NCBI GenBank assembly: GCA_964472395.1
Contig: CAYYMM010000001.1
Location: forward strand, 36,069 to 100,068
DNA from: an uncultured bacterium
GTDB taxonomy: Bacteria > CSSED10-310 > CALFER01
Direction: 5' to 3'
Length of the DNA: 64,000 nt
The notes under the pieces were generated by a model that saw only the letters and a program-made list of their open reading frames with translations, was not told the origin of the DNA and did no database searches. The stretch's first letter is position 1. Every line of letters begins with the position of its first letter. The position numbers and the translations under genes were made by a program. Shown here one piece after another: positions 14,175-59,086 of this stretch.

Positions 14175-14180
14175 AGAGAA

Positions 14181-15284
14181 TCAGACGATCATCGGCATGA
14201 CGATCGCCAGATACCGTAGCTCAGATTCAATGCCCGGCCGGAATTCCACCGGCCCTGACGGATTGTTCACGCGGATCGCGACATCCTCGGCATCGATCGT
14301 TTTGAGCAGTTCCAGAAGATACGTGACATTGAAACCCACAGTGAACGGCTCTTCGGTATACGCGATGGGAATCTGATCGCGGGCTTCTCCGAATTCAGGG
14401 GTATTGGCGGAAATCACGAGCATGTTGTTCTCAATGTTCATCTTGATTCCACGCGCTTTGATATCGGAAAAGAGCGATACGCGACGGAGCGACAGCATGA
14501 GGCTTTCCTTGTTCACTTTAATGATCAGACGGCATTCCTTCGGAATGACGATTGAATAATTCGGAAACATGCCTTCGACCAGCCTGGATATAACCGTTTC
14601 GCAACCGACTTTGAACACGAGATGATTGTTGTTGATGCCGAAACGAAATTCCTCTCCTCCTGCTCCGACCATCCGTTGGATTTCATGGACCGCCTTCTGA
14701 GGGATGATGACCTCGAGCGGAGTCATATTGAGTGTATTCGGTGTTTCAACATAAGCCAGACGATGGCCGTCCGTCGCGATCATCCGAACCGCTTCGTCAT
14801 CCACTTTGAACAAGACGCCTCCGAGAACCCGCCGGTTCTCGTCGTGACTGACCGCGTAGACCACTTTTTTGGTCAGATTATCCAGCAGATCACCAGGAAC
14901 GATGGTGAGGTTGCTTTCGTCCACATCCGGAAGCTTCGGGTAATCCACATCAGAAGAGCCGAAAAGACGAAACTCCGAAGATCCGCAGGAGAGCTTGATC
15001 CAATTGTTCTCCTCGAGTTTGAACTTCACGAGATTTTCCGGAAGTTCTTTCAGGACTTCGTAGAGTTTTTTTGCCGATACGAGAATACTTCCTGCTTCCG
15101 GAACATCGCATCCGATGAGATCACGGATACCGACCTCGAGGTCTGTAGCGATGACTTCGAGATTGCCTGAGTTGGCTGTCAGTTTGACGTTGTTCAGAAA
15201 TGGGTTGGTACTGCGTCTTTCGATGATCGATTGAACCTTCTGAATACTGGTCTGAAATGCTGATTTTTCGATACTGAATTCCAT
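14181..15284 (-). CDS. dnaN: DNA polymerase III beta sliding clamp
   Basis: 367 aa. Three-domain clamp with an N-terminus typical of DnaN (MEFSIEKSAFQTSIQKVQSII...). Confidence 0.95.
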   Translation of the reverse strand: MEFSIEKSAFQTSIQKVQSIIERRSTNPFLNNVKLTANSGNLEVIATDLEVGIRDLIGCDVPEAGSILVSAKKLYEVLKELPENLVKFKLEENNWIKLSCGSSEFRLFGSSDVDYPKLPDVDESNLTIVPGDLLDNLTKKVVYAVSHDENRRVLGGVLFKVDDEAVRMIATDGHRLAYVETPNTLNMTPLEVIIPQKAVHEIQRMVGAGGEEFRFGINNNHLVFKVGCETVISRLVEGMFPNYSIVIPKECRLIIKVNKESLMLSLRRVSLFSDIKARGIKMNIENNMLVISANTPEFGEARDQIPIAYTEEPFTVGFNVTYLLELLKTIDAEDVAIRVNNPSGPVEFRPGIESELRYLAIVMPMIV

Positions 15285-26300: not shown

Positions 26301-26466
26301 CTTTGTCGCCGGCGAATTGACATCCGGTCTGCCGAACATCGAGACGGTTGTGCCGACACCGACTCCGCCGCCTCAGGTGCCTGCATCGAGCCCCGCCGGT
26401 CTGGCCGTCATGATCATCATGATTTCGGTCCTGATCGGTTGGAGTCTTGCCCGCTCGCGCAACTGA
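23371..26466 (+). CDS. Secreted protein with four lamin-tail-domain (LTD) repeats, a conserved N-terminal domain, PT linkers, a C-terminal TM helix and basic tail
   Basis: 1031 aa. RBS GGAGG 8 nt upstream. Signal peptide MKGRSILSLAALLMFFAAAAHG. LTD signatures begin IIINEVDSD...FIELYDGG, IKINEVFVNSPETDIHCFVELYYPGG, IKINEIFVDP...WMEIINTSD and IKLNEVYINPPGTDVGCFVELYFPGG. C-terminus ...VPASSPAGLAVMIIMISVLIGWSLARSRN. Confidence 0.8.
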   Translation: MKGRSILSLAALLMFFAAAAHGQTIARWDFEDENLIVDEGSGTLARIGGGAVSYVTGNPGRAVTSNNYPTAASPDATNCWQINISTLSFFDIFLSFDETRSSTGIRAFQVFYSIDGGSNYTAAAPATTVPDDSLWRSQSIDMSAISEIENAASVILQIRPYSAEATTGTWRLDDILISQGAPAATSTPTSPSATNTPTPTNTTGGPTSTPTNTPPSSSSIIINEVDSDTLGTDVAEFIELYDGGTGNTSLNGHVVVLFDGSTDTSYRAIDLDGYTTNAQGYFVIGSTGMGTPIEISPGGSGWLQNGADAVAVYLGHDTAFPSGTAVTTTNLVDALVYDTDDADDAGLLDLLNASEPQINENINLNKDTESMQRCPNGTGGARNTSTYTLLATTMGVENTCVIPPTNTPANTPTPTNTSGGPTDTPTVTPTNPPISAIKINEVFVNSPETDIHCFVELYYPGGNLSLNGYSLVGVNGNGGADYVTIDLSTYSIPADGFFVIAQDTGVANYDMIAASVDMQNGPDSIQLRAGAVVVDAMGYGNFSSAVFAGEGTPCPIIPPEYSYSRIPDGEDLDDNVVDFFIGDLTAGLPNVEAVVPTATPTGSTPVPTNTPTSSGPTNTPTITPTSGPIPPIKINEIFVDPVSLDDDLEWMEIINTSDSPVDVTDVIIQSTTATGQVYTDRVILPALIIPANGYLLVAESLVDVTSVPGTTVIYQPTSPDLDIDMQNGSSHTEGVRIVTGAHDVIDTVIYSNPNEPDLIPGDEPGDPYGEHFALRPLSGNSLARCPDGQDTNLCDEDFIRRTTEYVTIGDINNCEVPTPTPTPTGPTPTPPPTSAIKLNEVYINPPGTDVGCFVELYFPGGMALTGYSIVGINGYDGSEYITIDLSTYSIPTDGYFVIAQDTSVANYDVIDTRINLQNGPDSIQIKYSGVVVDAMGYGDFTGMIFGGEGDPAPAYFTGPYSHSRIPDGDDTEDNLTDFVAGELTSGLPNIETVVPTPTPPPQVPASSPAGLAVMIIMISVLIGWSLARSRN

Positions 26467-31425: not shown

Positions 31426-32889
31426 ATGAAAATACTGCTGATCATCCCGCCCGGCGGATACTATGCGGAACGATGGAGCGGAGGCGTGTTGATGCCGCCG
31501 CTCGGAATCGGATACGTTGCCGCATCGCTCGAAAACACCGCTCATGACGTTCGCCTGCTCGATGCCCACGTCGGAAGAATGACGGATCGTGACGTCCAAT
31601 TGGTAGTTGAAACCGAAAAACCAGATGTGGTCGGCTTGACATTCACGACAGAAAACCGTTTTGAGGCATTTGCGACGGCTCGCGCCATCCGTGAGGCAGC
31701 GCCCGGGTGTCATCTGACAGCCGGAGGCCCTCATGTTTCACTCGCCGCTCAGGATACGCTCGAGGGGGTGTCCGTCTTCGATTCGGTGGTGGCAGGAGAA
31801 GGTGAGATCACGATGGTGGAGCTGGCGGAAGCGCTGTCGACCGGCCGTGAGCAAGATCTGAGCAAAGTCGGAGGCCTCGTGTACCGCGATTCAGACGGCA
31901 TCATCCGGTCGAACCCAGGCCGCGAACGCATCATGGATCTCGATTCCATCCCCTTCCCAGCCCGCCACCTGTATCCTCCGATGTCGGAATATCATTTTCA
32001 GTTCGACGTACCGGGAAAGGGTATCCGGCAGTTCTCGAATCTGATGACCAGCCGCGGCTGTCCCTGCGCGTGCAATTTTTGCGCGACCCCGAAGGTGTGG
32101 GGTCGTCAGGTTCGGATGCGGTCGCCTGAGAACATCATGTCCGAGATCGATCTGATGGTGGAGCGGCATGGCGCGCAGGCGTTGTGGTTTTTCGACGATA
32201 CGTTCAATTCGTCGCCCAACCGCGTCCGGAAGCTGTGTGCGATGATCCGTGACCGGCAATACGACCTTCCGTGGTTCTGTGAGGTTCGGGTCGATCAGAT
32301 GTCAAAGGAATTACTGGCGGAAATGCGCGAGGCCGGCTGTTACACGATCGGGTTCGGGGTCGAATCCGGCTCGCAACGCATCCTCGATGATGTCGTCGGA
32401 AAGCACCTCAAGCTGGAAAAAGTGCATGAGTTGTATGAATGGTGCCGCGAGTTGGATGTGATTGCCAATCCATTTTTCATTCTGAGTCACCCGACCGAGA
32501 CCTGGGAAGAGGCGCGATTGACGATCGATCTGATTCGTAAATTTAAGGAAGGCGCACAGGTGTCGATGGCGTTCATGCATGTTTATCCCGGCACGGAACT
32601 CGAACGTGAGGCCCGTCGGATCGGCACGCTGCCATCGGATTTCAAATGGCATCAGGATGGCCGGACAGACGTGAAAACCCTCCCGTCGGCTCAAGGGAAT
32701 GTCCCGATTTTCCTGGATAAACTGTCCTGGTCGCAGGTGTCGGATCTCTTGTTCGAGTGGGCCGAGATGCAGCATTATTCGGTTTGGAGGAAAATCCCCA
32801 AAGTGCTCCGATCCATCCGCTCGATCGATGATGTCAAACGGTATGGCATCATGGGTTGGCGTTATCTGCGGAGACGGCTTTCTCTGTGA
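31426..32889 (+). CDS. Cobalamin-binding radical SAM enzyme (class B), paralogue 1
   Basis: 487 aa. N-terminal B12-binding Rossmann-like domain (MKILLIIPPGG...) and radical SAM cluster motif TSRGCPCACNFCATP. Confidence 0.8.
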   Translation: MKILLIIPPGGYYAERWSGGVLMPPLGIGYVAASLENTAHDVRLLDAHVGRMTDRDVQLVVETEKPDVVGLTFTTENRFEAFATARAIREAAPGCHLTAGGPHVSLAAQDTLEGVSVFDSVVAGEGEITMVELAEALSTGREQDLSKVGGLVYRDSDGIIRSNPGRERIMDLDSIPFPARHLYPPMSEYHFQFDVPGKGIRQFSNLMTSRGCPCACNFCATPKVWGRQVRMRSPENIMSEIDLMVERHGAQALWFFDDTFNSSPNRVRKLCAMIRDRQYDLPWFCEVRVDQMSKELLAEMREAGCYTIGFGVESGSQRILDDVVGKHLKLEKVHELYEWCRELDVIANPFFILSHPTETWEEARLTIDLIRKFKEGAQVSMAFMHVYPGTELEREARRIGTLPSDFKWHQDGRTDVKTLPSAQGNVPIFLDKLSWSQVSDLLFEWAEMQHYSVWRKIPKVLRSIRSIDDVKRYGIMGWRYLRRRLSL

Positions 32890-32948: not shown

Positions 32949-35060
32949 ATGCATCTCGATAATCTCTCCGGAATGCAGATCCGCGAATATCGTGTGATCG
33001 AAAAACTCGGTCAGGGCGGAATGGCGACGGTGTTCAAGGTCGAGCATGTCTTGTTGCGCACGTTTCGCGCGATGAAGGTGATCCGACCGGTCAAGAACCA
33101 AGATGCGCAGTATGTTCTGCGTTTCGAGCGCGAAGCTCGTGTACTTGTCAGCCTCGACCACATCAACCTTGTGCGCGTCTATGATTTTTTTCAAGAAGAG
33201 GGGTGCCTGTTCCTGATCATGGAATATGTGCCCGGTGAGAGCATGGAGGTGCGGCTGCGAAGAACACATGTGTTTTCGGCACGTGATGTGATCGAGATTC
33301 TCTCGCAGGCCTGCGAAGGCTTGCATGTCGCTCATCAAGCCGGCATCGTGCATCGCGATCTGGCGCCGGACAATCTCCTGATCATGCCGCTTTCCGATGG
33401 GTGTGAACGAATCAAGGTCATTGATTTCGGCATTGCAAAGGATGTGACTGAGAGTCAGACGGATGGGCTGACCGTGATGGGCAAATTTGTCGGTAAACTG
33501 GCGTATTGTTCACCGGAACAGGCTGCCGGAAACGCGCTGGATCAACGCAGCGACATCTATTCATTGGGCTTGGTCGCCCATCGAGCCTTGACGGGACGCA
33601 TCCCGTTCCATCCCAAATCCCCGTTCGAAGCACTCGCCCTGAGGCAGGTTCAGGATGCGCCGACGCTGTCGGAAAGCCGACCGGATGGACGATTCCCGGA
33701 CAGGTTGGAGGCAGCCGTGGCGCGAGCGCTCAAGCGAGATCCTCGTGAACGGTTTCAGCGTGTGCTGGAGTTCCGGGATGCACTGCGCGATGTCATGGGT
33801 GAATGTGAGGCGGCGAACGAAGACACTCAGTTTCGTACCACATCGAAAGCGGCGAAACAGATTCCTGGATCAGAGTCGCTGTCCGACCGGATCGAGCCCG
33901 ACGGGACTGACGATCGGACAATCGAGGGGCAACGCGCCGCCGTTCCGATCGAAGTGGATCTGGATCGCCTGGAGACCTCGGTTCGCGATTTCCCCTGGGG
34001 TATCTTCATTGTGATTGCTCTGGCTGTTGCCGCATTCGTAATCGGCTGGTATCAAATCTCACACTACGGGAAGCAGGCGCCGACGATGCCGATACCGCCG
34101 ACGATTTCTGTTTCGTCGCCGACTCATACGATGACGCCTGAAGACACCGAGACACCCTTGCCGACGATGATGGATACTCCGACCATGACCCCGGAGCCCC
34201 TCCCGGAAACCCTTCCCATCCAGACTCAATCTCCCGTCAACACTCGACCAGAACCGACGACCGCCGACTCAGACCGAACTCTTGCGATCGTGAAGGCAAC
34301 CGCTGAGGCTGAAAAAGCCCGCTGGGTCTCTGCTCCCACAGACGTGCCGTTGGCGCGGATCGCGCACGGCGCGGTCGTGATCGGCAGTGATCCCGATGAA
34401 CCCGGGAGGCGCGATGACGAATCGGTTTGGGCGGTTGGAATCAGCAGGGATTATCAGGTATCTGTCACCGAAGTGACTCAGGCCCAGTATCTTGCGGTCA
34501 TGGGCCACAATCCCAGCCGGAATAAAGGGCCGGATTATCCCGTCGAGAGTGTCACGTGGTTCGATGCGCTCCGGTTCTGCAATGCGCTGTCGATCAAGCA
34601 GGGGATCAAGCCGGCCTATGAGATCACGAAGGATGGAGATAGCATCGAGGTGAGCTGGCTGCCGAATTCCAGCGGATACCGTCTGCCGACCGAGGCGGAA
34701 TGGGAAACGGCGGCGCGTGCCGGCAGAAAGACGCCATTTACGGTCGGGGGCAGGCTCACACAGGGGCACGCGAATTTCGACAATCCTTCCGGAATTAAAA
34801 CAGTGCGCTGTTACGAACCGAATGCGGCCGGGATATATGATGTCGAAGGGAACGTGCGGGAATGGTGTTGGGACGGGTATGGCGAATATGGAACCGAGCC
34901 AGTGACCGATCCGTCGGGACAAGCGGCTTCATCGCGGAGAGTGGTGCGGGGCGGGAGTTTCCGAACGAAGATGGAGGGATGCCGGCTGGCGGGGCGGGAT
35001 TCCGAGGAGGCGGGGAAACGTTCCGACGACATCGGATTCCGGGTGGTGCGGAACCCGTGA
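32949..35060 (+). CDS. Ser/Thr protein kinase fused through a TM helix and PT-rich linker to a C-terminal FGE-sulfatase (formylglycine-generating-enzyme family) domain
   Basis: Kinase motifs HRDLAPDNLL and DFGIAK. TM helix GIFIVIALAVAAFVIGW. FGE-family motifs VTWFDALRFCNALS, GYRLPTEAEWE, NVREWCWDGY, RVVRGGSF. Confidence 0.85.
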   Translation: MHLDNLSGMQIREYRVIEKLGQGGMATVFKVEHVLLRTFRAMKVIRPVKNQDAQYVLRFEREARVLVSLDHINLVRVYDFFQEEGCLFLIMEYVPGESMEVRLRRTHVFSARDVIEILSQACEGLHVAHQAGIVHRDLAPDNLLIMPLSDGCERIKVIDFGIAKDVTESQTDGLTVMGKFVGKLAYCSPEQAAGNALDQRSDIYSLGLVAHRALTGRIPFHPKSPFEALALRQVQDAPTLSESRPDGRFPDRLEAAVARALKRDPRERFQRVLEFRDALRDVMGECEAANEDTQFRTTSKAAKQIPGSESLSDRIEPDGTDDRTIEGQRAAVPIEVDLDRLETSVRDFPWGIFIVIALAVAAFVIGWYQISHYGKQAPTMPIPPTISVSSPTHTMTPEDTETPLPTMMDTPTMTPEPLPETLPIQTQSPVNTRPEPTTADSDRTLAIVKATAEAEKARWVSAPTDVPLARIAHGAVVIGSDPDEPGRRDDESVWAVGISRDYQVSVTEVTQAQYLAVMGHNPSRNKGPDYPVESVTWFDALRFCNALSIKQGIKPAYEITKDGDSIEVSWLPNSSGYRLPTEAEWETAARAGRKTPFTVGGRLTQGHANFDNPSGIKTVRCYEPNAAGIYDVEGNVREWCWDGYGEYGTEPVTDPSGQAASSRRVVRGGSFRTKMEGCRLAGRDSEEAGKRSDDIGFRVVRNP

Positions 35061-35255: not shown

Positions 35256-37634
35256 ATGAACAAATGGACGTTCCTGGCGATGCTGCTCGCGGTCGTCGCA
35301 TCGATCGGATCGGTGCGTGCCGACATCATCGCGGGGTGGGATTTTGAAGATCAGAATCTGAGTGTTGATCAGACCACTCCGAACAACCTGGACAATGTGA
35401 TCACGACGACATCGACCGCCACGGTGGTTTACTCGGCGGGCGCCGGCGGGAGTCTTTACGCCGCTTCGTGGTCCGACATGGCTAATCTGAATTTGAGTTA
35501 CATCGAGGTGCCGGTCGATACGACGGGATACAGCAATATTGCGTTCATCTTCAGCGCGCGTACCTCGAATACCGCATCCAAGTACTGGAAAGTGCAGTAT
35601 TCCTCGACAGGATCAGCCGGTCCTTTCACAGATGCCACACAGATCATCGAACAACAGAGCACTGCCTGGACGCTCAATAACGTCTTTGATCTCTCAACCG
35701 TCACCGATCTCAATGACAACGCCGACGTCGTGTTCCGCATCGTGGCGACCGACAGCACCGGAACGGGCAGCGGGACCTGGGTTCAGGCCGATGGCGAAGG
35801 CGCACCGGCATCCACCGGCACCTTCCGTATCGATGACGTCAAGATCCAGAACGATGTGACTGTTCCTCCGACCAGCACGCCGGCCCTGACCAACACGCCC
35901 GGCCCGCCGACCAATACTCCCGGCCCGCCCACCGCGACACCGACCGGTCCGACTCCGACGCCTCCTCCGGTGACCGCGATCAAGATCAACGAAATCTACA
36001 TCAATCCTCCCGGAACGGACATCGGCTGTTATGTTGAGCTGTATTTCCCCGGCGGATCGAGTCTTGATGGGTATACACTCGTCGGCGTCAACGGCAATGA
36101 CGGCGCGGACTACGGTTCGATCAGCCTGTCCGGACAGTCGATCCCGGCGGACGGGTACTTTGTCATCGCTCAGGACACCAACGTCGCGAACGCCGATCTG
36201 ATAGATGTTCTGGCCAACTATCAGAACGGGCCGGACAGCATTCAGCTTCGACAGGGCGCAACGGTCATCGATGCGATCGGATACGGCGATTTTACCGGCG
36301 GAACGTTCTTCGCGGGAGAAGGCACGGCAGCTCCGGCATACTTCACGGGAGAGCAATCGCATTCGCGTCTGCCGGATGGCTTCGATACAAATGACAACGT
36401 GGTCGACTTCCAGGCCGGTCAGCTCACTCCGGGATCTGCGAATCTTCCCGGCGGCGGCAGCGACACGCCTACTCCGGGAGCTACCGCGACCGTGCCGACT
36501 CCGACTCCAACCGGGCCGACCCCAACGCCTCCCCCGGTCTACAACATTAAAATCAACGAAGTGCATGTCAATCCGGACGGCGCTGATGTGGGATGCTACG
36601 TCGAACTCTACATGCCGACCGGCACGACCGTCAGTCTGGACGGTTACTATCTGGTCGGTGTGAACGGTTTCGACGGCATCGATTATCAGGCCATCCCGCT
36701 CACCGGAACGATCGGCCCCGGACAGTACTTCGTCGTGGCACAGGATACGTCCGTGCCCAATGCCTCGATGATCGATGAAAATGTCAATTTCCAGAATGGT
36801 CCGGATAATATTCAGCTCCGTGCCGGTATGAGCACGGTGGTGGATGCGATCGGATATGGGACATTCCTTCCGACCGATACATTCGTCGGTGAGGGGACGC
36901 CGGTTCCGTATGCGAATCCCACCGGCAATCTCTCGCTGTCGAGACTTCCAAACGGTACCGATACGGAGAACAACTCGGTCGATTTCCAGAACGGCGAACT
37001 GACCGCGGGTGCCTCGAACGTTGCAGCCGGCGCCGCCACACCGACTCCGGGACCGTCGACTCCGACCGCAACTCCGACCCGGACTGCAACCCCCACCTTT
37101 ACTCCGCTTCCACCGACCCCCACACCCACGACGCCTCCAGGCAGCCCGACCTATACGGCAGTTCCGACGAACACTCCGACGAATACCCCGACAACGCCAC
37201 CGACGCACTCACCTACACCGACGAGCACAAGCGGCGGGCCGACGCATACACCTGCTCCCACAGAGACCCCCGATCCCTGCACGACACTCGGCGTCACACT
37301 CGAAATGCCGTCTCACATGTTCCATCCCGGCGATCCGTGCTATCTGAAGGCATTCGTCTGCAATCCGAACGCGGATACTTACAACCAGGTTCCGGTCTTC
37401 GTGATTCTCGAGGTCGGCGGGCAGTATTTCTTCGCGCCGAGCTTCACGAGCTTCGACCATTACACATTAAATGTGACACCGGGGATGCACCAACTCGATC
37501 CGCTCCCCCTATTCACATGGCCCTCGGGTGTCGGTTCCGCCGATGGCTTGACCTTCTATGGTGCGATGACGGATCAGGCGATCACGACTCTCTTCGGAGA
37601 ATTGGATACCTGGACATTCGGATGGGCCGAGTAG
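35256..37634 (+). CDS. Secreted protein with two LTD repeats, an N-terminal domain homologous to that of 23371..26466, PT linkers and the shared ~115-aa C-terminal domain
   Basis: 792 aa. Signal peptide MNKWTFLAMLLAVVASIGSVRA. LTD signatures begin IKINEIYINPPGTDIGCYVELYFPGG and IKINEVHVNPDGADVGCYVELYMPTG. C-terminal domain 37278..37634. Confidence 0.8.
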   Translation: MNKWTFLAMLLAVVASIGSVRADIIAGWDFEDQNLSVDQTTPNNLDNVITTTSTATVVYSAGAGGSLYAASWSDMANLNLSYIEVPVDTTGYSNIAFIFSARTSNTASKYWKVQYSSTGSAGPFTDATQIIEQQSTAWTLNNVFDLSTVTDLNDNADVVFRIVATDSTGTGSGTWVQADGEGAPASTGTFRIDDVKIQNDVTVPPTSTPALTNTPGPPTNTPGPPTATPTGPTPTPPPVTAIKINEIYINPPGTDIGCYVELYFPGGSSLDGYTLVGVNGNDGADYGSISLSGQSIPADGYFVIAQDTNVANADLIDVLANYQNGPDSIQLRQGATVIDAIGYGDFTGGTFFAGEGTAAPAYFTGEQSHSRLPDGFDTNDNVVDFQAGQLTPGSANLPGGGSDTPTPGATATVPTPTPTGPTPTPPPVYNIKINEVHVNPDGADVGCYVELYMPTGTTVSLDGYYLVGVNGFDGIDYQAIPLTGTIGPGQYFVVAQDTSVPNASMIDENVNFQNGPDNIQLRAGMSTVVDAIGYGTFLPTDTFVGEGTPVPYANPTGNLSLSRLPNGTDTENNSVDFQNGELTAGASNVAAGAATPTPGPSTPTATPTRTATPTFTPLPPTPTPTTPPGSPTYTAVPTNTPTNTPTTPPTHSPTPTSTSGGPTHTPAPTETPDPCTTLGVTLEMPSHMFHPGDPCYLKAFVCNPNADTYNQVPVFVILEVGGQYFFAPSFTSFDHYTLNVTPGMHQLDPLPLFTWPSGVGSADGLTFYGAMTDQAITTLFGELDTWTFGWAE

Positions 37635-37715: not shown

Positions 37716-39254
37716 CTAAGAATCTGCGGGATGCTTGCCAGTGAGATCGAACAGAATGACCGAAACACCGATGAAGCTACGTTCTTCGATTTTTTCGTAT
37801 CGGGTCTCCAGCCATTCCAGGACTTTCTTGTTGTGTTGCGTGTAAAAATCGACACATCCGTCCAGTTCGAAACACCAGTCAGTTTTGTAGACCCAAAGTC
37901 GTTGATGCGAATCGAGCCATTCAGGGGCCAGGTTTGTGGAGCGCACTTCGGGGTACTGCTGCACGATATCGTCGAGATTGAATTTGTGGATCAAATCCTT
38001 CCGATACTCGTCGTCGATGTCGAGGAAGTATGCGGGAGGAAACTGATTGAGATACACGAGATAGTACCAGACGGGAAACGTGCCACTTTCACAGGTTGTT
38101 CCGATGATATCTCCGGGCAGGAATTGTGTATCGATCCATCGGGATGCTTCACGAAATTCCTTCCGGGGCTGTATCTGCGAACGCATGCCGCTTTTGTAAT
38201 CGTTCCGATAATGGTAACTCAGCGTGAAGGCGTGAATCATGGTCAGAGCGGACAAAACGAAGATGGTGAGTTTTCGTGACCCAAACCTGTTGATTCCGTG
38301 TGCAATCGCAATCAGAAATGGCGCGAGAGCGAAGATGGTGTATCGAGGGACGAAGATGCAGGTCGGAAGAAGCAGCGATGTGAGCAAGGCGAGGCTGACA
38401 GGAATGATTCCTGCTGCGATCAGATAGTGTTGAAGAACAGGCTTCTGCCGGTCCAGGATTCCGAACAGCGCCGCCGAAGCACAGGCGAGACCTACTGTGA
38501 TGTAGACGATACGGGAGGCTTCATACCCTGAGCTGTACACCGACACAAGCTCCCAAACCGTTCGGATTGACACCGGCGGACACCAGAATGTCGCGGTGAT
38601 GATCCCTTTTGAAAGTGTGAAGAAACGGGCCAGGTAAGGAGCAAAAAAGAGAGACAGAAGGGTGCCAGCCAGCAGACTTCGCTTCACTGCGATTTTGAAG
38701 GGCAAAAACAGAAACAGGCCTAGGATCTGTCCGGCGAGAAAGAACAGAGAATAGTAATGGGTGTAAAGAAAGGCGGTGTCAACGAGGATCCAGCCGGCGA
38801 GATCAATAGAAGAACCAGATTCAGTCCAGCGTACGAAAAACAGCCAGGAAAGCACGGCAAGCAGCAGCGCGAGAGAATACATCCGGAGTTCCCTGGAGTA
38901 ATAAACAGCAAACGGCGATACCGATAGCAGTAAAGAAGCAGTCAATGCGGTTCGATGCGTCGAGATGTGTAAGGTGAGAAAGTACAGAGCGGGGATTGCT
39001 GCAACTCCGAATATTACCGGTAATGTCCGGAGCCCGAATTCGGAAGTAAAAAACAGGAGCCATAGGTTTAGAAAGACATGAAAGAAAGGCGGATGAAACG
39101 ACCGACCAACCACACTGCTGTAAATGGATTCGGTTTCATCCATCCAGAACGAATAATCGCCGAGGCGATACAGTCTGAGTCCGATTGCCACTGTTGTGAT
39201 AACCGCAAGGAGTACAAGGGAACGTCGATATAAAGGAATCGATCTGTGGTTCAT
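37716..39254 (-). CDS. GT39/GT83-type membrane glycosyltransferase (ArnT / protein O-mannosyltransferase-like)
   Basis: 512 aa polytopic protein. N-terminal loop motif YRLGDYSFWMDETESIY is typical of lipid-linked sugar-dependent GT-C enzymes. Confidence 0.7.
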   Translation of the reverse strand: MNHRSIPLYRRSLVLLAVITTVAIGLRLYRLGDYSFWMDETESIYSSVVGRSFHPPFFHVFLNLWLLFFTSEFGLRTLPVIFGVAAIPALYFLTLHISTHRTALTASLLLSVSPFAVYYSRELRMYSLALLLAVLSWLFFVRWTESGSSIDLAGWILVDTAFLYTHYYSLFFLAGQILGLFLFLPFKIAVKRSLLAGTLLSLFFAPYLARFFTLSKGIITATFWCPPVSIRTVWELVSVYSSGYEASRIVYITVGLACASAALFGILDRQKPVLQHYLIAAGIIPVSLALLTSLLLPTCIFVPRYTIFALAPFLIAIAHGINRFGSRKLTIFVLSALTMIHAFTLSYHYRNDYKSGMRSQIQPRKEFREASRWIDTQFLPGDIIGTTCESGTFPVWYYLVYLNQFPPAYFLDIDDEYRKDLIHKFNLDDIVQQYPEVRSTNLAPEWLDSHQRLWVYKTDWCFELDGCVDFYTQHNKKVLEWLETRYEKIEERSFIGVSVILFDLTGKHPADS

Positions 39255-40720
39255 TTCTGGTTATTGGAGGAAAAACTTCCCTGGACGAGATACTTCCAGA
39301 ATTTCCGGAGTGATTTCAGTGTTCGTACGGCCTCGTCCGGCCTGGTCAGGATCTGCCGGAGCTTAAAGAGGATGTATCGCGGTCTGAGATAGAACTCGCG
39401 CCTCGCCCGGTCACAAAAGGCAACCAGTTGTGTATGACTGAGTTCCGGGCGATTGACGACGCAGTTGTGAAGACCTTCCGGTGTCAGCCAGCATGAGAAA
39501 TCGTTTGTTGCCAGATAACCACTCGACCGCGCCCATTCAAATGCTTCCGTTCCCGGATAGACCATCAGCGGGAAAAACTGGGCGGTATCGGTATTCAATT
39601 CCTTGGCAAACGCCAGTGTGGCCTCGAGAGTTTCTTCGGTTTCCTCGGGGAGTCCGACGAGATAACACCCGTGTACCATGATTCCCGCACGCTTCGCGTC
39701 CCGGACAAACCGTCGGCTCTGTTCGAGGGTCAGTTTCTTGTTCATCCGATCCAGGATCGTCTGACTGCCGCTTTCGAATCCGACACACAACAGGCGGCAT
39801 CCTCCCTTTTTCAACCATTTCAGCGTTTCAAAATCGACATCAGCCCGCGAATTCGCAGTGAACCCGATACGAATCCCGCGTTCGATTTTTCGTCGCATCA
39901 ATGCCTGGCAACGGACCGCGTCCAGCGTCATCGCATCATCCTCGATGAAAAGCTCGCGAACCCCCTCAAAATGAGTCTCGACGAATTCCCATTCATCCAG
40001 AACCTTCTCGATGTCCCGGAACCGCACCCGTCTGCCGGTCAGGTTCTGCGGATAGACGCAGTAAATGCAGTGATGCAGGCATCCCCGGCTGGTGATGAGC
40101 GTGACTTCGGGGTATCGGGCGATCGAGTAGAAATAATCCTTGAAATTCAGAAATTTTCGATAGACTTCCGCCACCATCGGCAGGTCATCGAGCTGTTCGT
40201 TGAGGGGGCGAGGAGCCGTGCGGATGATGTCGGAACCGAGGCGGAAAGCGAGTCCCGGAATGGTGCGCCAGCGGTCCCGAGGGTCGTGCAGGTGTCCGGC
40301 CAGTTCGCAGAGTGTCAGCTCATATTCGCCGATGACGACCGCATCCGCGGACGCATTCCCGCGGAGAGTCTCCTCTGGAACAGCCGAAACATGCACGCCA
40401 ACGAACACCGTGATCGTGTCCGGGCATGCTGTCTTGCACGCAGCTCCGACGGCCAGATCGTTCGCGATGCTCGGGGTCGATGTCGCGATCACGATCAGAT
40501 CGGGTTTGCTCCGCTCGACATGTTCCGCGACATGCCCGTGCGTCCAGTTCCGGGGCACGGCATCGATCAGTTCGACGTCGTGGCCATCTTGGATCAGAGC
40601 GCCGGCGGCGTAAGCGAGCCACATCGGGTAGTAGATTGTTCCGCTCTTGGTGACGGCCGGTGAGCGTTGTTCGCGTGAGAACTGCTGGAGGAACGGTGGG
40701 TTGAGACACAGAACTTTCAC
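39251..40720 (-). CDS. Cobalamin-binding radical SAM enzyme (class B), paralogue 2
   Basis: 489 aa. B12-binding N-terminal domain (MKVLCLNPP...GHDVELIDA) and TSRGCLHHCIYCVYP. Overlaps the GT39 gene by 4 nt. Confidence 0.8.
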   Translation of the reverse strand: MKVLCLNPPFLQQFSREQRSPAVTKSGTIYYPMWLAYAAGALIQDGHDVELIDAVPRNWTHGHVAEHVERSKPDLIVIATSTPSIANDLAVGAACKTACPDTITVFVGVHVSAVPEETLRGNASADAVVIGEYELTLCELAGHLHDPRDRWRTIPGLAFRLGSDIIRTAPRPLNEQLDDLPMVAEVYRKFLNFKDYFYSIARYPEVTLITSRGCLHHCIYCVYPQNLTGRRVRFRDIEKVLDEWEFVETHFEGVRELFIEDDAMTLDAVRCQALMRRKIERGIRIGFTANSRADVDFETLKWLKKGGCRLLCVGFESGSQTILDRMNKKLTLEQSRRFVRDAKRAGIMVHGCYLVGLPEETEETLEATLAFAKELNTDTAQFFPLMVYPGTEAFEWARSSGYLATNDFSCWLTPEGLHNCVVNRPELSHTQLVAFCDRARREFYLRPRYILFKLRQILTRPDEAVRTLKSLRKFWKYLVQGSFSSNNQK

Positions 40721-43365: not shown

Positions 43366-45144
43366 GTGCGACGGAGGTTCTCTCGAATGGCCGATGCCGG
43401 TTCCATGCGATTTTCTTCCATCCACGGTGTGATCGCCGGCGGATTGGCGATCGGCTGCGCCCGAGGCATCATCGAGGGGATCTCGCTATACGTTTCACAC
43501 CCGGTCCGACTCCCGGTCGACTCCCTGATCCGACTATGCTTCCAGACAACGGTTCTCTACGCTGTCGTCATCGCATGCATCGGAACGCTTCTTGTCACAA
43601 TATTCCGCCGCACAGGACTGCTTCCTGAACGCGGCCGGTGGCTCTGGCCGCTCCTGTTTCTCGTTCCAATCGTCCTGATCGATCTCAATGGCTGGACTCA
43701 CCGCCAACAGACCGCGTTTCGGGAATCGGTCTTACCGATGAGTCCTTCCCGGACGGACTATCCGGATATCCTCCTCTTCACGCTCGATACCTGTCGCGCT
43801 GATCGGTTGGGCTGTTACGGATATCCGACGGGATCCACGCCGATGATCGATGCGCTTTCGCGTCGGGCGACGGTTTTCGTCGATGCCATCACGACGATAC
43901 CGGTGACGACCAGTGCGCATGCGACGATCATGACCGGATTAGAGCCTATGACGCATGGAAGCCGCTTCAATGCGGTTCCCATCCATCGACGCTTTAAGAC
44001 GCTCGCCGAGCGGTTGCAAGATGAGGGGTATCGGACCGGCGCATTCATCGGCGCGTTCCCTGTGGCTGCGGAGGTGTCCGGGTTGGATCAGGGGTTCCAT
44101 GTTTACGAGCAGACTCTGACGCCGCAGTATCTGCATCCCCTGTTGTATCAATCGACGCTGCTCGCCCCGTTACGCTCAATCGGGCGCTTTCGTCCCGCCG
44201 AACGTCGTGCGGCGCAGATCGAGCCATGGGTCGATGCCTGGTGGCGCACGCTTCCTCCGGATGCACCTCGGTTCACATGGCTGCATTACTACGATCCGCA
44301 CGCACCGTACGATCCTCCCAAGAATTGGCGACGCTACTTCACGGGGGATTCGAGCGTTCGCACCACTTCGATCTGGCGGATCCATTCAATGAACCATGAA
44401 GCACCTCCGACAGAAGATGAAATCCGGACGAATCTTGCGTTGTATGACGGAGAGATCGCTCAGACAGATCGCGCCATCAGCAGGATTCTCAATGTACTCG
44501 CATCCGCAGGCCGTCTGGACCGGACCTGGATCGTCATTCTGGCCGATCACGGTGAGAGTCTGGACGAACACGAGTATTACTTTTCACATGGCGACAACAC
44601 GTTCGAGCCGTCTTTGCGGATCCCGTTTCTGATCGTGCAACCGCTCTTTGCATCCAGGATAACGCAGGATGCGAGAGGTTTGACCGGAGGATTGATGGCG
44701 GAGCTTGCAGGGAATGCCGATCTGGTCCCGACCCTTCTGGGAGTGCTCGGAATATCGACCCCGGAGATGACGGACGGCCGGAACCTGATCAAAGACGACG
44801 GGAAAGATCTCTCGGACAGACTGTTGATCTGTGAATCTGGTTCAGGGGTTTACACTGAAGCGCATCGAGTCTCAGCGGAAAAAATCAGTCGGAAGGAGCG
44901 GACAGTGCGAACCGAACGGATGAAGCTGATCCGATCTGCCGATGGGCGCTCATCTGCTTTTGATCTCGACGATGACCCTCGTGAGCTTCGGCCGATCGAC
45001 GGCACGCAGGATCCGCACGTGATCCGGCTTGGAGAGATATTGGATACGGCCATTGCGCGGGATCTGGAAGATCCGCGATACCAGACGATGTCGCGGGATC
45101 AGGAAACAGTTGATCAATTACGCGAACTGGGATATGTGGAGTGA
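43366..45144 (+). CDS. Membrane sulfatase-like hydrolase/transferase (alkaline-phosphatase superfamily, Thr nucleophile variant; LtaS/EptA-like rather than a true sulfatase)
   Basis: N-terminal TM helices, then catalytic domain LLFTLDTCRADRLGCYGYP...PVTTSAHATIMTG. Thr replaces the Cys/Ser of the sulfatase CxPxR motif. Confidence 0.7.
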   Translation: MRRRFSRMADAGSMRFSSIHGVIAGGLAIGCARGIIEGISLYVSHPVRLPVDSLIRLCFQTTVLYAVVIACIGTLLVTIFRRTGLLPERGRWLWPLLFLVPIVLIDLNGWTHRQQTAFRESVLPMSPSRTDYPDILLFTLDTCRADRLGCYGYPTGSTPMIDALSRRATVFVDAITTIPVTTSAHATIMTGLEPMTHGSRFNAVPIHRRFKTLAERLQDEGYRTGAFIGAFPVAAEVSGLDQGFHVYEQTLTPQYLHPLLYQSTLLAPLRSIGRFRPAERRAAQIEPWVDAWWRTLPPDAPRFTWLHYYDPHAPYDPPKNWRRYFTGDSSVRTTSIWRIHSMNHEAPPTEDEIRTNLALYDGEIAQTDRAISRILNVLASAGRLDRTWIVILADHGESLDEHEYYFSHGDNTFEPSLRIPFLIVQPLFASRITQDARGLTGGLMAELAGNADLVPTLLGVLGISTPEMTDGRNLIKDDGKDLSDRLLICESGSGVYTEAHRVSAEKISRKERTVRTERMKLIRSADGRSSAFDLDDDPRELRPIDGTQDPHVIRLGEILDTAIARDLEDPRYQTMSRDQETVDQLRELGYVE

Positions 45145-46508
45145 CCATGAAAGTCCTCTTCGTCAAGCCCTGCTGGAATTATCCGATCGACAAGGGCGAT
45201 TCAACTTACAATCGCAACTGGCCACCGTTGTCGCTGTTGAATTGTGCCGCTCTGGTCCGGCGTGAAGGGATCGATGTTGAGGTCGTGGATGCCGCGGCTG
45301 AGCGTTTATCGCCCGAGGCTGTCGCACTGAGGGCCGCGGAATGTGACAAGGTATTTATCACTTCCGCAAGTCTCGATCGGTGGCAATGCCCGAACATCGT
45401 GATCGATCCGTTTCTAAAAACCGTGTTCGCTCTGAAGAAGGTCTGTCGCGAGGTGTATGTCATGGGAACGCACGGCACGGTGCGCCCCCGCGAGATACTC
45501 GATGCAACCGGCGTCACGGCGGTCATTGTCGGCGAACCGGAAGAGGCGGTTCTGTCGATTTGTCGGGGAATAACGCTCGGTTTGTTGCAGGGGGTGGCTT
45601 ATGAGCAGGATGGTCGGTTTTGTTTGATACCCCAGCAGCACGATCTCGACCTGACGGCCCTCCCGATCCCCGCATACGATCTGATTGACCTGAAGCAGTA
45701 TCGATATGAGGTTCTGGGTGAGCGTTTTGCGTTGATCGAGGCATCGAGAGGATGTCCATTCAACTGTATTTTCTGTGTCAAATCGATGTATGGCAGCGCA
45801 TATCGGTGCAAAACCATCGAGCAGGTCATAAGGGAAATCGATTATGTCATCGATGTCGCTCGTGCGCAGACCATCTATTTCATCGATCTCGAGTTCACCG
45901 TCAATCGCGACATGGTGAAAGCGGTTTGTGACCACTTCATCCGGAAGAAGTCGGGGGTTGAGTGGTGCTGCCAGACACGGACGGATTCAGTCGATGAGAC
46001 GATGCTGGCGATGATGAAAGAGGCCGGCTGCCGAATCGTGCATTTCGGTGTTGAAACAGGTTCCGAGCGGATTCGGGCGAATCTGAAGAAGGGGATCACG
46101 AGGGAGCAGATCGAAAATGGTTTGAGAATGACACGGGTGGCGGGATTGCAGACGGTTTGCTTCTTCATGTTCGGGTTACCCGGGGAAACGATAGCGGACA
46201 TGGAGGAAACGATTCGATTTGCCAAGAAACTGAACCCGACCTATGCGTCGTTTCATATCGCGTTACCTTACCCGGGGACCGAGTTTCATGAGATGGCGCG
46301 GGAAAACATCGGGACGGAGTTGTTTCCAAAGGCGTATACGGGCGAGGTATGTTATGATGATTTGATTCGCGTCGCGAGACGTGCGTTTCGGTCTTATTAT
46401 CTGAGGCCGAGATACATTGCGGGTCGGATGAAGGATCGTGATTTCAGAACATTTTACAGGCAGGCCCGTTTTTTTATTTCGTATCTGATTCATCGATTAT
46501 GGAGTTAA
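45141..46508 (+). CDS. Cobalamin-binding radical SAM enzyme (class B), paralogue 3
   Basis: 455 aa. B12-binding N-terminal domain (MKVLFVKP...GIDVEVVDA) and ASRGCPFNCIFCVKS. Confidence 0.8.
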   Translation: MTMKVLFVKPCWNYPIDKGDSTYNRNWPPLSLLNCAALVRREGIDVEVVDAAAERLSPEAVALRAAECDKVFITSASLDRWQCPNIVIDPFLKTVFALKKVCREVYVMGTHGTVRPREILDATGVTAVIVGEPEEAVLSICRGITLGLLQGVAYEQDGRFCLIPQQHDLDLTALPIPAYDLIDLKQYRYEVLGERFALIEASRGCPFNCIFCVKSMYGSAYRCKTIEQVIREIDYVIDVARAQTIYFIDLEFTVNRDMVKAVCDHFIRKKSGVEWCCQTRTDSVDETMLAMMKEAGCRIVHFGVETGSERIRANLKKGITREQIENGLRMTRVAGLQTVCFFMFGLPGETIADMEETIRFAKKLNPTYASFHIALPYPGTEFHEMARENIGTELFPKAYTGEVCYDDLIRVARRAFRSYYLRPRYIAGRMKDRDFRTFYRQARFFISYLIHRLWS

Positions 46509-56116: not shown

Positions 56117-59086
56117 ATGAGGAATGCAATGGTTGGGATGGCGCTGCTCGGAGCGCTGCTGTTGTGTGGCTTTGCAGCACACGCGGCCGAAGTCGGTGAT
56201 CAGCAGGCAGCCTACGATCTGACGGTCTCCAGTGTTCTGGGGGGAAAGTCAGAGGGGTTGGGTATATTCGTGACGGAATCACCGTTGAAGCCGGGTACTG
56301 ACGTCACGACATTGAAACACACCGTGAAGACGATCGAAACGTCCCAGTGGATGGTGTTTATCGATTACCATCCTGGAGCAAACTGGTCGCATGCCTGTAT
56401 GTACGTGTTTATCGATGCGTCGGATGGTTCGATCGAGACGATCCGGGATGTGTGGGCTCCTACAATGCTCAAATCCATGATCCGGAAAACCGGACCGGAT
56501 CCGTTCGGCGGGCAGAACCGGATCGCGCCGAAACCGAAGCGGGTGTCCGAACGCGAAAGTCGTTCCGCTGACAATCTATGGGCCGTCATCCTTTCCGGTG
56601 GATATGACTCGGGCAATAATCATGTCCGTTACTGGAACGACTGTTCCTCGATCTATACGACATTGACGGAAGTGTACGGGTATCTGGATGATCATATCAT
56701 CGTAGCCATTTCAGATGGTACGAATCCTGCCGCGGATCAGTCCAACGGGCAGAATTCGGATCCGGATCTCGATAATGACGGCGACGACGACACAATGTAT
56801 TCCTGCACTCGTGCCAATCTCAGCACCATCTTCGGCAATCTCGCCACAACCCTCGATTCCAGTGATTCGCTGTTCATTTTCACAACCGATCATGGCTCGG
56901 GCCAGTACGGCGTTCCGGGGCAGCCGACCAGCCAGAATCTCTGGAATGGCGAAGAAATCTGGGATTACGAATTTGCCGATCTGCTCGAACCGATCAACTG
57001 CCGGGAGATGTTCCTGACGCTCGAACCCTGTTTTTCGGGTGGATTTGTGAATGACGTCATTGAAATGAATTCAACCGTTGCCCGTGTGATTTCGACGGCG
57101 GCGAATGACCATGAGTATTCCTGGGCGATGGGTCCGGATTACGTGTATGACACGTATGTCTTTCATTGGACTGCGGCCGTGCGCGGGGAAGATGCGTACG
57201 GGAATCCTGTGGATGCCGATTCGAACAATGACGGCGAAGTATCTATGCAGGAAGCTTATAATTACGCGTTGGCAATGGATCAGGATGACGAACATCCGCA
57301 GTATGGCGAATATCCGGCGGGGTACGGCGCTAATGCATCGCTCTTCGGTTCAGGTCCTGTATCGGAAGGCGAGGTCAAGCTGTCGAGAAGTATCTATAAC
57401 TGCGCGGACACGATTCTGGTCGTCGTCGAAGATCTGGATCTCGTCGGGACCGGGACGGTGGATGTACACATCGCGAGCACCACAGAAACGACCCCGGAAC
57501 TTCTCACATTGACAGAGACCGAGGATGGACATTTCGAGGCGACGATGGCAACGGGCACCGGATCCCCTTCGCAGGATAATGTATTGCAGGTGACGGATCA
57601 GGATACGATCACGGTCGAGTACGATGATGAAAACTACGGAGGAACAGGGCCGCAGACGGTGAATGACACGGCAGATGTCGATTGTGTCGGCCCGGCCATC
57701 AGCAACATCGGAAGCGGGCAGGAAACCTTCGAGTCGGCGGTGATCAGTTGGACGACCGATGAGCCTGCGACGAGCCGGATCGAATATGGCACGACGATGG
57801 GTCTTGGTTTGGTGTTCGAAGACACGGAACTCGCGACCAACCATCAGGTCACGCTCGAAGGGCTTGACGATTGCACATATTACTATTTTCAGGTCATTTC
57901 AGTTGATGCTGCGAACAATGCAACCGTGGATGATGCCGGCGGCTCGTTGCATATCTTCCAGACCTGGCAGCTCATGCTGTTTTTGGATGAACCGCTCGAC
58001 AGCAATCCGCTATGGACGGCGCAGGGGCAGTGGGCATTTGGTGTGCCGACCGGTTCGGAGGGCGATCCGACGTCCGGGTACACGGGATCGAATGTCTACG
58101 GTTACAATCTGAACGGTTCGTACCCCAACAATCTCGCGGAAACATATCTCACGACACCGCCCATCGATTGCACCGGCGCTCAGGGAACGATTCTCCGGTT
58201 CTGGAAGTGGCTCGGGGTCGAAAGCGCGACCTGGGATCATGCCTCGGTGCAGATATCAAACAATGGATCCACATGGACGACGATCTGGGATCACACTGGG
58301 TCATCCTTCCAGGATAGTGCGTGGTCTCAGATGGAATTCGATGTATCGGCTGTTGCGGACAACCAGGCTTCGTTCTACATTCGATGGGTCATGGGCGCGA
58401 CCGACGGTTCGGTCGTGTATTCCGGCTGGAACATTGACGACATTCAGTTGTACGCGTCGCAACCTTGTTCCGGTGAAACGCCCACTCCGGGACCTCCGAC
58501 GCCCACACGAACCGCCTCTCCGACGCCTCCCCCCTCCACACCGACTCCGACGCGCACCCCGACTCGAACACCGACGGTAACTCCGAGCGCAGCGCCTCCG
58601 ACGTTTACTCCGACTCCTGCGCCGACCCATACACCCCAGGCGACCCAAACACCAGCGCCGACAGACACACCGGAACCGACGGAGACCCCTGAATTCACGG
58701 CGACACCGACCAGTCCGCCGATTCCGGAAAAAGGCATGGAGTTGATTCTGGACGATCAGGAACTGGCGGCCGGAGATTCCTTCAATCTGCACATGTACCT
58801 CCACAATCCGGATGTCGATTCGTATGTTGCGGACGCCTACATCCTGCTGGATGTCTACGGTAATTACTGGTGCTGGCCGTCCTGGAAATCCCTGAACGAA
58901 GGGTTGGACAAAAAGGTCGAGACGATTCCGGGAATGACATCGATGCATGAAGCGGTGCTCGAATTCGAATGGCCGGCCGGTGTCGGTTCGGCGAACGGTC
59001 TGCAGTTCATTGGCTGCCTGTTCGCGCCGGACACCTGGGACATGATCGGAACGCCTCAGATCATCAGTTGGAGCTACATGGATTGA
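56117..59086 (+). CDS. Secreted multi-domain peptidase: C13 legumain-like (clan CD) catalytic domain, FN3-like domain, MAM/jelly-roll-like domain, PT linker and the shared C-terminal domain
   Basis: 989 aa. Signal peptide MRNAMVGMALLGALLLCGFAAHA. Catalytic dyad context LFIFTTDHGSG and LTLEPCFSGGF matches legumain (FTDHGS, EACESG). C-terminal domain 58733..59086. Confidence 0.8.
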   Translation: MRNAMVGMALLGALLLCGFAAHAAEVGDQQAAYDLTVSSVLGGKSEGLGIFVTESPLKPGTDVTTLKHTVKTIETSQWMVFIDYHPGANWSHACMYVFIDASDGSIETIRDVWAPTMLKSMIRKTGPDPFGGQNRIAPKPKRVSERESRSADNLWAVILSGGYDSGNNHVRYWNDCSSIYTTLTEVYGYLDDHIIVAISDGTNPAADQSNGQNSDPDLDNDGDDDTMYSCTRANLSTIFGNLATTLDSSDSLFIFTTDHGSGQYGVPGQPTSQNLWNGEEIWDYEFADLLEPINCREMFLTLEPCFSGGFVNDVIEMNSTVARVISTAANDHEYSWAMGPDYVYDTYVFHWTAAVRGEDAYGNPVDADSNNDGEVSMQEAYNYALAMDQDDEHPQYGEYPAGYGANASLFGSGPVSEGEVKLSRSIYNCADTILVVVEDLDLVGTGTVDVHIASTTETTPELLTLTETEDGHFEATMATGTGSPSQDNVLQVTDQDTITVEYDDENYGGTGPQTVNDTADVDCVGPAISNIGSGQETFESAVISWTTDEPATSRIEYGTTMGLGLVFEDTELATNHQVTLEGLDDCTYYYFQVISVDAANNATVDDAGGSLHIFQTWQLMLFLDEPLDSNPLWTAQGQWAFGVPTGSEGDPTSGYTGSNVYGYNLNGSYPNNLAETYLTTPPIDCTGAQGTILRFWKWLGVESATWDHASVQISNNGSTWTTIWDHTGSSFQDSAWSQMEFDVSAVADNQASFYIRWVMGATDGSVVYSGWNIDDIQLYASQPCSGETPTPGPPTPTRTASPTPPPSTPTPTRTPTRTPTVTPSAAPPTFTPTPAPTHTPQATQTPAPTDTPEPTETPEFTATPTSPPIPEKGMELILDDQELAAGDSFNLHMYLHNPDVDSYVADAYILLDVYGNYWCWPSWKSLNEGLDKKVETIPGMTSMHEAVLEFEWPAGVGSANGLQFIGCLFAPDTWDMIGTPQIISWSYMD

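Follow-up and report, generated by a model that had tools for sequence, protein, structure and literature searches.

A shared C-terminal domain on unrelated exported proteins of candidate division CSSED10-310 is a candidate cell-surface address module

Why do proteins with unrelated passenger domains end in the same C-terminal module? The question is raised by a 64,000-nucleotide stretch of DNA from an uncultured bacterium (contig CAYYMM010000001.1, positions 36,069 to 100,068 of the forward strand; hereafter the window), in which three large open reading frames (ORFs), all on the forward strand, finish with a closely similar C-terminal domain (CTD). A preliminary description of the window had singled out this domain as an undescribed sorting or secretion tag common to three unrelated secreted proteins. 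The reading that we tentatively favour is that the CTD is a folded, non-catalytic, immunoglobulin-like (Ig-like) β-sandwich that serves as a C-terminal address or anchor domain, docking its carriers on the cell surface.

All three ORFs exist, and their ends of about 117 amino acids align readily. By BLASTP, copy 3 shares 54% identity with copy 1 over 112 gap-free residues (E = 8e-42) and 33% identity with copy 2 (E = 2e-15); on sequence, the three window copies are homologous. A hidden Markov model (HMM) built from them and run against the six-frame translation of the window gives three matches, with E from 1e-51 to 6e-65, and no fourth copy, as the next-best match in that translation has E = 3. 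The conserved blocks quoted in the preliminary description are also present, namely LILDDxxLAAGDxFNLH, YILLDVxGxYWxWPSW, FxWPAGxGSxxGLxF and the W-S-Y end, with divergent variants of the blocks, FVILEVGGQYFFAPSF and FTWPSGVGSADGLTF, in copy 2. In copy 3, conserved motif 1 (YILLDVYGNYWCWPSW, 58838..58885) covers strands 3-4 of the predicted fold and the loop that follows, and has its equivalents at 1953..2000 and 37398..37445. Conserved motif 2 (FEWPAGVGSANGLQF, 58964..59008) holds a Trp-Pro pair that is invariant in the family, and its equivalents lie at 2079..2123 and 37512..37556.

The domains ahead of the CTD are as unrelated as had been claimed, and a linker rich in Pro and Thr precedes each copy. 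Carrier 1 (978..2198, 406 aa) comprises the blades of a Rax2-like β-propeller, a linker (1413..1841; 143 aa, 62% Pro+Thr) and CTD copy 1 as its last 118 aa (1842..2195). Carrier 2 (35256..37634, 792 aa) begins with a signal peptide (~35256..35321) and continues with two lamin-tail domains (LTD; E = 1e-21, best stretch ~36540..36860), a linker (37038..37277; 80 aa, 70% Pro+Thr) and copy 2 as its last 118 aa (37278..37631). This copy represents a Cys-containing subfamily with the pattern C..LGV.LEMPS..F.PGDPC...CNP. Carrier 3 (56117..59086, 989 aa) has a signal peptide (~56117..56185), a Peptidase_C13 domain (E = 1e-10, ~56579..57157), fn3-like and MAM-like regions (~58142..58453), a linker (58463..58732; 90 aa, 64% Pro+Thr) and copy 3 as its last 117 aa. 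The interval first given for copy 3, 58733..59086, does contain the domain but counts in the stop codon (59084-59086), and the domain proper is 58733..59083. Similarly, the description of all three carriers as secreted proteins holds for carriers 2 and 3, which have signal peptides, but carrier 1 lacks one of its own and lies behind an in-frame TGA that is considered further below.

To place these three copies in a family, an exhaustive HMMER search was performed with a four-sequence profile against 1.84 billion cluster representatives (50% identity clusters). It returned 2,337 clusters at E ≤ 1e-3, of which 1,773 have E ≤ 1e-10. The annotated members returned are all named ‘hypothetical protein’, with no Pfam domain across the CTD region. 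No Pfam-A or NCBIfam model matches the CTD in the three window proteins (E ≤ 1) or in 48 diverse family members (E ≤ 10), a sequence profile search of the PDB gave no relative beyond chance matches to LRP6 at E > 0.3, and the CTD motifs were found in no paper of the searched literature. The domain is thus undescribed, as had been supposed: neither Pfam-A (2025) nor NCBIfam (2026), the PDB or the searchable literature contains it. Exported proteins are well known to carry C-terminal address modules that are independent of the passenger; it is this particular domain that is new. Across the 48 diverse members the mean column identity is 40%, and the conserved residues, in the numbering of copy 3, are D15, N25, L39, G43, P49, F78 and G85, together with an invariant W80-P81.

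The position of the domain is highly consistent. Of the top 150 representatives, 145 have no more than 5 residues between the end of the domain and the C-terminus. One genome per species was scanned, with two narrow peptide patterns, and 38 loci were obtained; the copy numbers per genome given below are therefore lower bounds, and the phyletic picture rests on these two patterns. The family HMM run against these loci and the window gave 60 matches, 57 of them strong, and 53 of the 57 end 0-5 residues before the stop codon. Restriction to the C-termini of exported proteins is therefore seen in about 95% of copies, and no significant match to a characterised domain was found; either a spread beyond such C-termini or a match of that kind would have spoken against a tag. 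Single genomes hold many copies, as the preliminary description had anticipated, with at least 20 in the CALFER01 metagenome-assembled genome (MAG) and at least 13 in Zod_Metabat.419, and adjacent carrier genes are frequent (e.g. in loci L010, L015 and L024).

Some members at first appear to be stand-alone proteins of about 109 aa. They begin at the internal Met of the MPS motif, and we read them as truncated gene calls and not as real mini-proteins. A separate peculiarity is seen in P0003 (440 aa, CSSED10-310, MBN2054828.1), where two half-domains come after the signal peptide in reversed order, the second half at aa 31-82 and the first half at aa 107-163. The same protein has a complete C-terminal copy, and the arrangement looks like a circularly permuted fold or a duplicated fragment of it.

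All taxonomically labelled members of the family belong to candidate division CSSED10-310, and the remaining MAGs are labelled only ‘uncultured bacterium’. The family appears confined to CSSED10-310, although a genome scan limited to patterns does not prove this restriction. The window itself is closely related to the CALFER01 MAG, as the domain is 93% identical and genes are syntenic in loci L001, L007 and L023, and its C13 protein is 60% identical to P0021 and P0192, both labelled CSSED10-310. This rare phylum has been predicted as Gram-negative and described as sister to Acidobacteriota (PMC8248873), and the paper devoted to it makes no mention of secretion (PMC8248873). The presence of LpxC and a secretin in the loci that we fetched is consistent with an outer membrane.

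What, then, does the CTD do for the proteins that carry it? The passenger portion of the C13 protein served as a query, and the C-terminal ends of the homologues that it retrieved were compared. Those with 98-100% passenger coverage (46-78% identity) show three kinds of C-terminal end. Some end in the CTD (P0186, P0187, P0190, P0021, P0026, P0202 and P0203), others in a dockerin-like module of two repeats (P0188, P0189, P0191, P0192, P0193, P0197, P0199 and P0200, of which P0192 is labelled CSSED10-310), and others in a hydrophobic helix followed by a basic tail (P0195, P0198 and P0201). Homologues that cover about half of the C13 passenger (43-51% identity) have ends of the type IX secretion system (T9SS) CTD families PF18962 or PF13860, and come from Eisenbacteria, LCP-89, Bacteroidetes and unnamed bacteria, the named ones being phyla of the Fibrobacterota–Chlorobiota–Bacteroidota (FCB) group. 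Dockerin-like and CTD genes coexist in single MAGs and are adjacent in L013, and among the LTD proteins of the window one ends in the CTD (35256..37634) and another in a transmembrane tag (23371..26466). This swapping of C-terminal modules on orthologues indicates that the CTD sits in the architectural position of localisation modules. Such slot equivalence is the strongest argument that we have for the CTD as an address label.

The anatomy of the carriers agrees with export. When 50 carriers with a complete 5' end were examined by a crude test of hydropathy, 44 scored positive for a Sec-type signal peptide. Of the six failures, two turn out to have a signal peptide when inspected, one includes a stretch of unresolved residues (X), one is probably truncated because it begins inside its S8 peptidase domain, and two belong to the TGA-split propeller gene. 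In about 60% of carriers, the 60 residues upstream of the domain are more than 40% Pro+Thr. These two residues dominate at all 30 of the upstream positions that were compared; Cys occupies position -1 in 22% of carriers, marking the subfamily of copy 2, and no conserved motif or cleavage motif is seen at the junction of linker and domain over these 30 positions. Passenger independence extends well beyond the window. Among 47 carriers the peptidases include six of S8, three of C25, two each of M14 and M6, and one each of C10, M28, M1 and C13; there is one glycoside hydrolase, a GH18 chitinase, and the non-enzymatic passengers include Kelch, sortilin/BNR, LTD, PKD, fn3 and β-helix domains. From slot equivalence, position and export, the CTD is therefore a new passenger-independent localisation module. 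The original proposal of a sorting or secretion tag is thus supported in part, in its probable address role; a secretion signal in the narrower sense would be one of two readings of that role, the other being a surface-binding anchor.

The passenger list also bears on whether the CTD might instead bind a substrate or target, in the manner of a carbohydrate-binding module (CBM) or an adhesin, and so hold the enzyme on insoluble food, such as polysaccharide, protein aggregates or other cells, and not on the surface of its own cell. The conserved motifs are rich in aromatic residues (Trp, Tyr and Phe), internal copies occur occasionally, and a catalytic domain followed by a Pro/Thr linker and a small β-sandwich is the classic layout of enzymes with CBMs. 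However, a glycoside hydrolase is found in just 1 of the 47 carriers, most of the others being peptidases or non-enzymatic propeller and LTD proteins, and this low proportion of glycosidases is a reason to consider the idea unlikely. In addition, no Pfam CBM family matches the domain, tandem copies are limited to one odd case in 150 representatives, and the other occupants of the slot (dockerin-like modules, transmembrane tags and T9SS CTDs) direct a protein to its producer and not to a substrate.

A still less probable view is that the CTD has no addressing role at all and is a stabilising, oligomerising or intramolecular-chaperone domain that is C-terminal by chance. Many carriers are peptidases, and in peptidases a C-terminal pro-domain or Ig-like extension is common. 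Against such a role, the flexible linker of 80-143 aa seen in the window argues against packing of the CTD on a catalytic domain, and orthologous passengers work with quite different C-terminal modules; the long linker and this slot equivalence together make a structural role improbable. The passengers are moreover structurally unrelated to one another, and the degree of conservation, with its 40% mean column identity and invariant Trp-Pro, goes beyond the needs of a spacer.

Structure prediction was considered as a guide to function. With 4 sequences, AlphaFold gave a predicted local distance difference test (pLDDT) score of 72; with the 48-sequence alignment, the score was 98, the predicted template-modelling score (pTM) was 0.88, and copy 3 was modelled as an eight-strand, all-β, Ig-like sandwich. 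The best Foldseek match is factor XIII (E = 4e-4, TM 0.61), and no T9SS CTD is present in either Foldseek match list. The predicted fold is a generic E-set sandwich and assigns no function; E-set Ig-like folds have no function in common. The N-terminal pattern GDxhxLxhxhxNxG of the CTD resembles that of CARDB, and the profiles of CARDB (PF07705) and other named Ig-like families gave no accepted match. Mapping of the 48-sequence alignment onto the model places the most conserved motifs, NP, WPSW and WPxGxGSA, in the loops after strands 2, 4 and 6. In an up-down topology these three loops would cluster at one pole of the model, which suggests that they may form a binding or recognition site.

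We can now set out the anchor model more fully. The carrier would be exported via Sec by means of its N-terminal signal peptide, and its Pro/Thr-rich segment, probably glycosylated, would form an extended stalk. The CTD would then dock non-covalently to a component of the envelope, which may be a surface glycan, a lipid or a protein receptor, so that the passenger (peptidases, chitinase, or adhesin-like propeller and LTD domains) would be displayed on the surface and not lost to the medium. In this lineage the CTD would then belong to a set of three or more interchangeable C-terminal address modules, alongside the dockerin-like module and the transmembrane tail tag. Surface retention, non-covalent docking and glycosylation of the stalk are all features that we infer. 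The anchor model is favoured because the other C-terminal modules found in the phylum serve for docking or anchoring, and because a long Pro/Thr stalk, present in 60% of carriers, is combined with strongly conserved loop motifs. It is also a better fit to the natural proteins in which the domain is internal, since a signal that requires a free C-terminus should not tolerate such an arrangement. In L020 (3121..6807) the internal domain is followed by a Pro/Thr linker and a further domain of about 110 aa, in L032 (244..2472) by GGGGGS and a MAM-like domain, and in P0092 and P0124 by about 580 unannotated residues that are possibly β-helix-like.

Several observations weigh against the anchor model. 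A single copy, almost always at the extreme C-terminus with a tail of 0-2 residues, would sooner be expected of a sorting signal such as the T9SS CTD, and binding modules are often tandem or internal. The internal copies just described are few, and some could be artefacts of assembly or gene calling. The distant C13 orthologues carry a true secretion signal, the T9SS CTD, in the same slot. The model leaves the route across the outer membrane unexplained, and no binding partner or ligand was identified among carrier-adjacent genes or window ORFs.

Some of these observations lend weight to a secretion or sorting signal like the T9SS CTD, whereby, after Sec export, a dedicated translocon in the outer membrane would recognise the folded domain and a sortase-like peptidase would remove it; the new C-terminus, the Pro/Thr stalk, may then be attached to a surface glycolipid. 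We regard this as possible, and prefer the anchor model to it. The strict single-copy position at the extreme C-terminus fits such a signal, as do the dozens of cargo genes per genome in the two MAGs counted above, a β-sandwich of similar size class, and the presence of PF18962 and PF13860 in the same slot of C13 orthologues from FCB phyla. The cargo list (C25 gingipain-like, C10, S8, M14, M6 and M28 peptidases and a GH18 chitinase) also matches the T9SS repertoire. Furthermore, the cargo genes are dispersed with no dedicated neighbour, which is expected if one central machine serves them all. On the other side, the CTD has no sequence or profile similarity to T9SS CTDs (hhalign probability 1.2%), its junction with the linker lacks a conserved cleavage motif, rare proteins have domains downstream of it, and no machinery gene was seen in the ~480 kb of sampled, partly annotated sequence. 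To our knowledge, the T9SS is confined to the FCB group. The phylum discussed here is reported to be sister to Acidobacteriota, and not a member of FCB (PMC8248873). A bolder version, in which the CTD is the cargo signal of a new outer-membrane secretion and surface-attachment pathway in CSSED10-310, with its own translocon and processing enzyme, a functional counterpart of the type IX system with a separate evolutionary origin outside FCB, seems to us doubtful.

The genes around the carriers were compared for a possible partner. All-against-all clustering of 333 ORFs from the 38 loci and the window gave no recurrent neighbour of sortase, translocon or receptor type and no partner from the outer membrane or among peptidases, and the remaining window ORFs offer two-component-system domains alone, with no partner candidate among them. 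Two families do recur in this clustering. Fusions of a Ser/Thr kinase with a formylglycine-generating enzyme (FGE)-sulfatase domain occur near carriers 7 times in 6 loci, and B12-binding radical SAM proteins 9 times in 5 loci. The sites to which these observations refer are 32949..35060, 31426..32889, 39251..40720 and 45141..46508 in the window, and loci L014-L017, L019, L022, L023 and L036; two sulfatases are also encoded in the window. The recurrence could reflect plain abundance of paralogues or a surface-modification neighbourhood.

Directly downstream of the LTD-CTD gene, the window encodes a GT-C family glycosyltransferase (PMT_2, protein O-mannosyltransferase-like; 37716..39254, reverse strand), and a PMT_2 GT-C homologue is also found near a carrier in L036. 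The Pro/Thr linkers are candidate substrates for O-glycosylation by this enzyme. Elsewhere in the window, a dnaN-recF-gyrB-gyrA cluster (8051..15284, reverse strand) implies that the window is probably near a replication origin. There is no dnaA directly upstream of dnaN, where the next gene encodes an ATP-grasp enzyme on the opposite strand.

The two other kinds of C-terminal end in this lineage deserve a description of their own. The dockerin-like module is rich in Cys, with the pattern C-I/N-x-DGDVNxDGxITAGDAQLAF...CAADCNGNGxVTAGDAQxIF...SCxDP, and is also found at L013 7959..10406 (reverse strand) and L020 2..2848; its occurrence implies a cohesin-like receptor somewhere in these genomes. 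The tripartite tail consists of P-x-S/T-G/S-P-x-G, a hydrophobic helix and a basic end (e.g. ...PVPTSGPFGLGVMIFAISALLGLSVLRKK), and is seen on other large exported proteins with Pro/Thr linkers. It occupies the C-terminal ~35 aa of the proteins at window 4282..7806, 21148..22575 and 23371..26466 and at L007 621..3704 (reverse strand) and 8375..11560. The tails of window 4282..7806 and 23371..26466 and of L007 621..3704 reached the cutoff of no NCBIfam CTERM or sortase-signal model, and the same three gave weak matches to the GlyGly-, MYXO- and PEP-CTERM and LAVTG models. The tripartite tail may be a second unclassified sorting tag of this lineage.

The lack of a signal peptide on carrier 1 led us to look at the sequence ahead of it. 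ORF 978..2198 is in the same frame as ORF 12..965, with a single TGA (963-965) between them, and the propeller repeats run across this stop. The upstream propeller ORF (12..965, forward strand) runs off the 5' end of the window, and a signal peptide is present at the start of its orthologue, L007 3760..5130. The split is kept in L007, L039 and L041, where the downstream ORF is 97%, 76% and 48% identical, respectively. Around the stop lies a 44-nt element (TCCTGACCGGGnCCnGGGATGCTGTTCAGCnTCCGCCCGTTnTC; 960..1003, forward strand, with the TGA at 963-965 and an ATG at 978) that is near-invariant at the nucleotide level although its flanks are saturated with substitutions; it is also present at L007 5125..5168, L039 ~2483..2526 and L041 ~1406..1449. 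Within it, a 7-bp hairpin, GGAUGCU-GUUC-AGCAUCC, starts at a distance of 10 nt from the TGA and takes in the downstream ATG, and one A-to-G change in L039 retains a G.U pair. An alternative genetic code was rejected as an explanation, as TGA ends 29 of the 38 window genes. No Rfam match to a selenocysteine insertion sequence (SECIS) or other known RNA was obtained at the TGA, the local fold energy is unremarkable (z-score -0.07), and no further instances of the element were found, a metagenome scan giving one chance match. By analogy, the geometry resembles that of a bacterial SECIS, or possibly another signal for read-through, recoding or reinitiation. If the TGA is recoded, this may yield a short free form of the propeller and a long form bearing the CTD.

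Passenger-independent C-terminal modules are labels by which bacteria mark their cell-surface proteins, and LPXTG, PEP-CTERM and the T9SS CTD each led to the discovery of a sorting enzyme or secretion machine. The HMM of our family alignment (A3) provides a sequence handle on the proteins that an uncultured and barely studied phylum secretes or places on its surface, and among the genes that co-occur with the CTD there could be a new receptor, sortase or translocon. Annotation as exported and probably surface-displayed proteins, many of them peptidases, becomes possible for at least 2,300 ‘hypothetical’ clusters. The pattern of slot swapping on orthologous passengers could also serve to find other address modules that have escaped recognition.

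How does the CTD compare with the systems already described? Among Ig-like folds, it can be set beside CARDB and other E-set domains (PDB 3idu, the Ig-like domain of GH2, the macroglobulin MG domain and the β-barrels of factor XIII), from which it differs in a second half, bearing WPSW and WPxGxGSA, that is specific to the CTD family. By sequence it is not a T9SS CTD, PEP-CTERM or LPXTG signal, as the preliminary description had also judged, and this holds for Pfam and NCBIfam searches to E ≤ 10 and for hhalign. With the tags of the PEP-CTERM/exosortase, GlyGly-CTERM, MYXO-CTERM and LPXTG/sortase systems, it shares the role of a passenger-independent C-terminal address on many paralogous secreted proteins. 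Those tripartite tags are however only ~25-35 aa long, with a short motif ahead of a transmembrane helix and a basic tail, whereas the CTD is a soluble folded domain of 115 aa that ends in ...W-S-Y-(M-D), with no transmembrane helix, basic tail or NCBIfam CTERM match.

There is a likeness in architecture to the type A CTD of the T9SS. Both appear to be passenger-independent, folded β-sandwiches at the extreme C-terminus of Sec-exported proteins. In each case a genome has dozens of carriers, the cargo is very similar (C25, C10, S8, M14 and M6 peptidases and GH18 chitinase), and the slot in C13 orthologues is the same. A divergent T9SS CTD was considered and rejected: the 1.2% hhalign probability was obtained with alignment A3 against an alignment (A6) of 28 T9SS CTDs cut from the orthologues, and none of the 48 diverse members matches the type A profiles (TIGR04183, PF18962 and PF13860) at E ≤ 10. 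The T9SS domain is ~75-85 aa long, compared to ~115 aa and 8 strands for that of CSSED10-310, and the T9SS CTDs in A6 show PNPF...DxxGR...G.Y...K/R end in place of WPSW and WPxGxGSA. The CSSED10-310 domain also differs in the long Pro/Thr linker that usually precedes it and in belonging to a lineage outside the FCB group. None of the T9SS core components (SprA/Sov, PorV, PorU and PorK/L/M/N) was seen in those parts of the window that were annotated.

Finally, type I dockerins (PF00404) are ~70-aa, duplicated, Ca-binding helix-loop repeats, unlike the all-β sandwich of the CTD, which does not match PF00404, differs clearly in appearance from the dockerin-like modules of the orthologues, and for which, in contrast to dockerin systems, no cohesin-like receptor has been identified. 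In layout the two are nevertheless alike, as each is a single, C-terminal, non-catalytic module that follows a Pro/Thr linker on diverse secreted enzymes, and on the C13 orthologues the dockerin-like module and the CTD are interchangeable, with at least one of the dockerin-like carriers (P0192) coming from CSSED10-310 itself.

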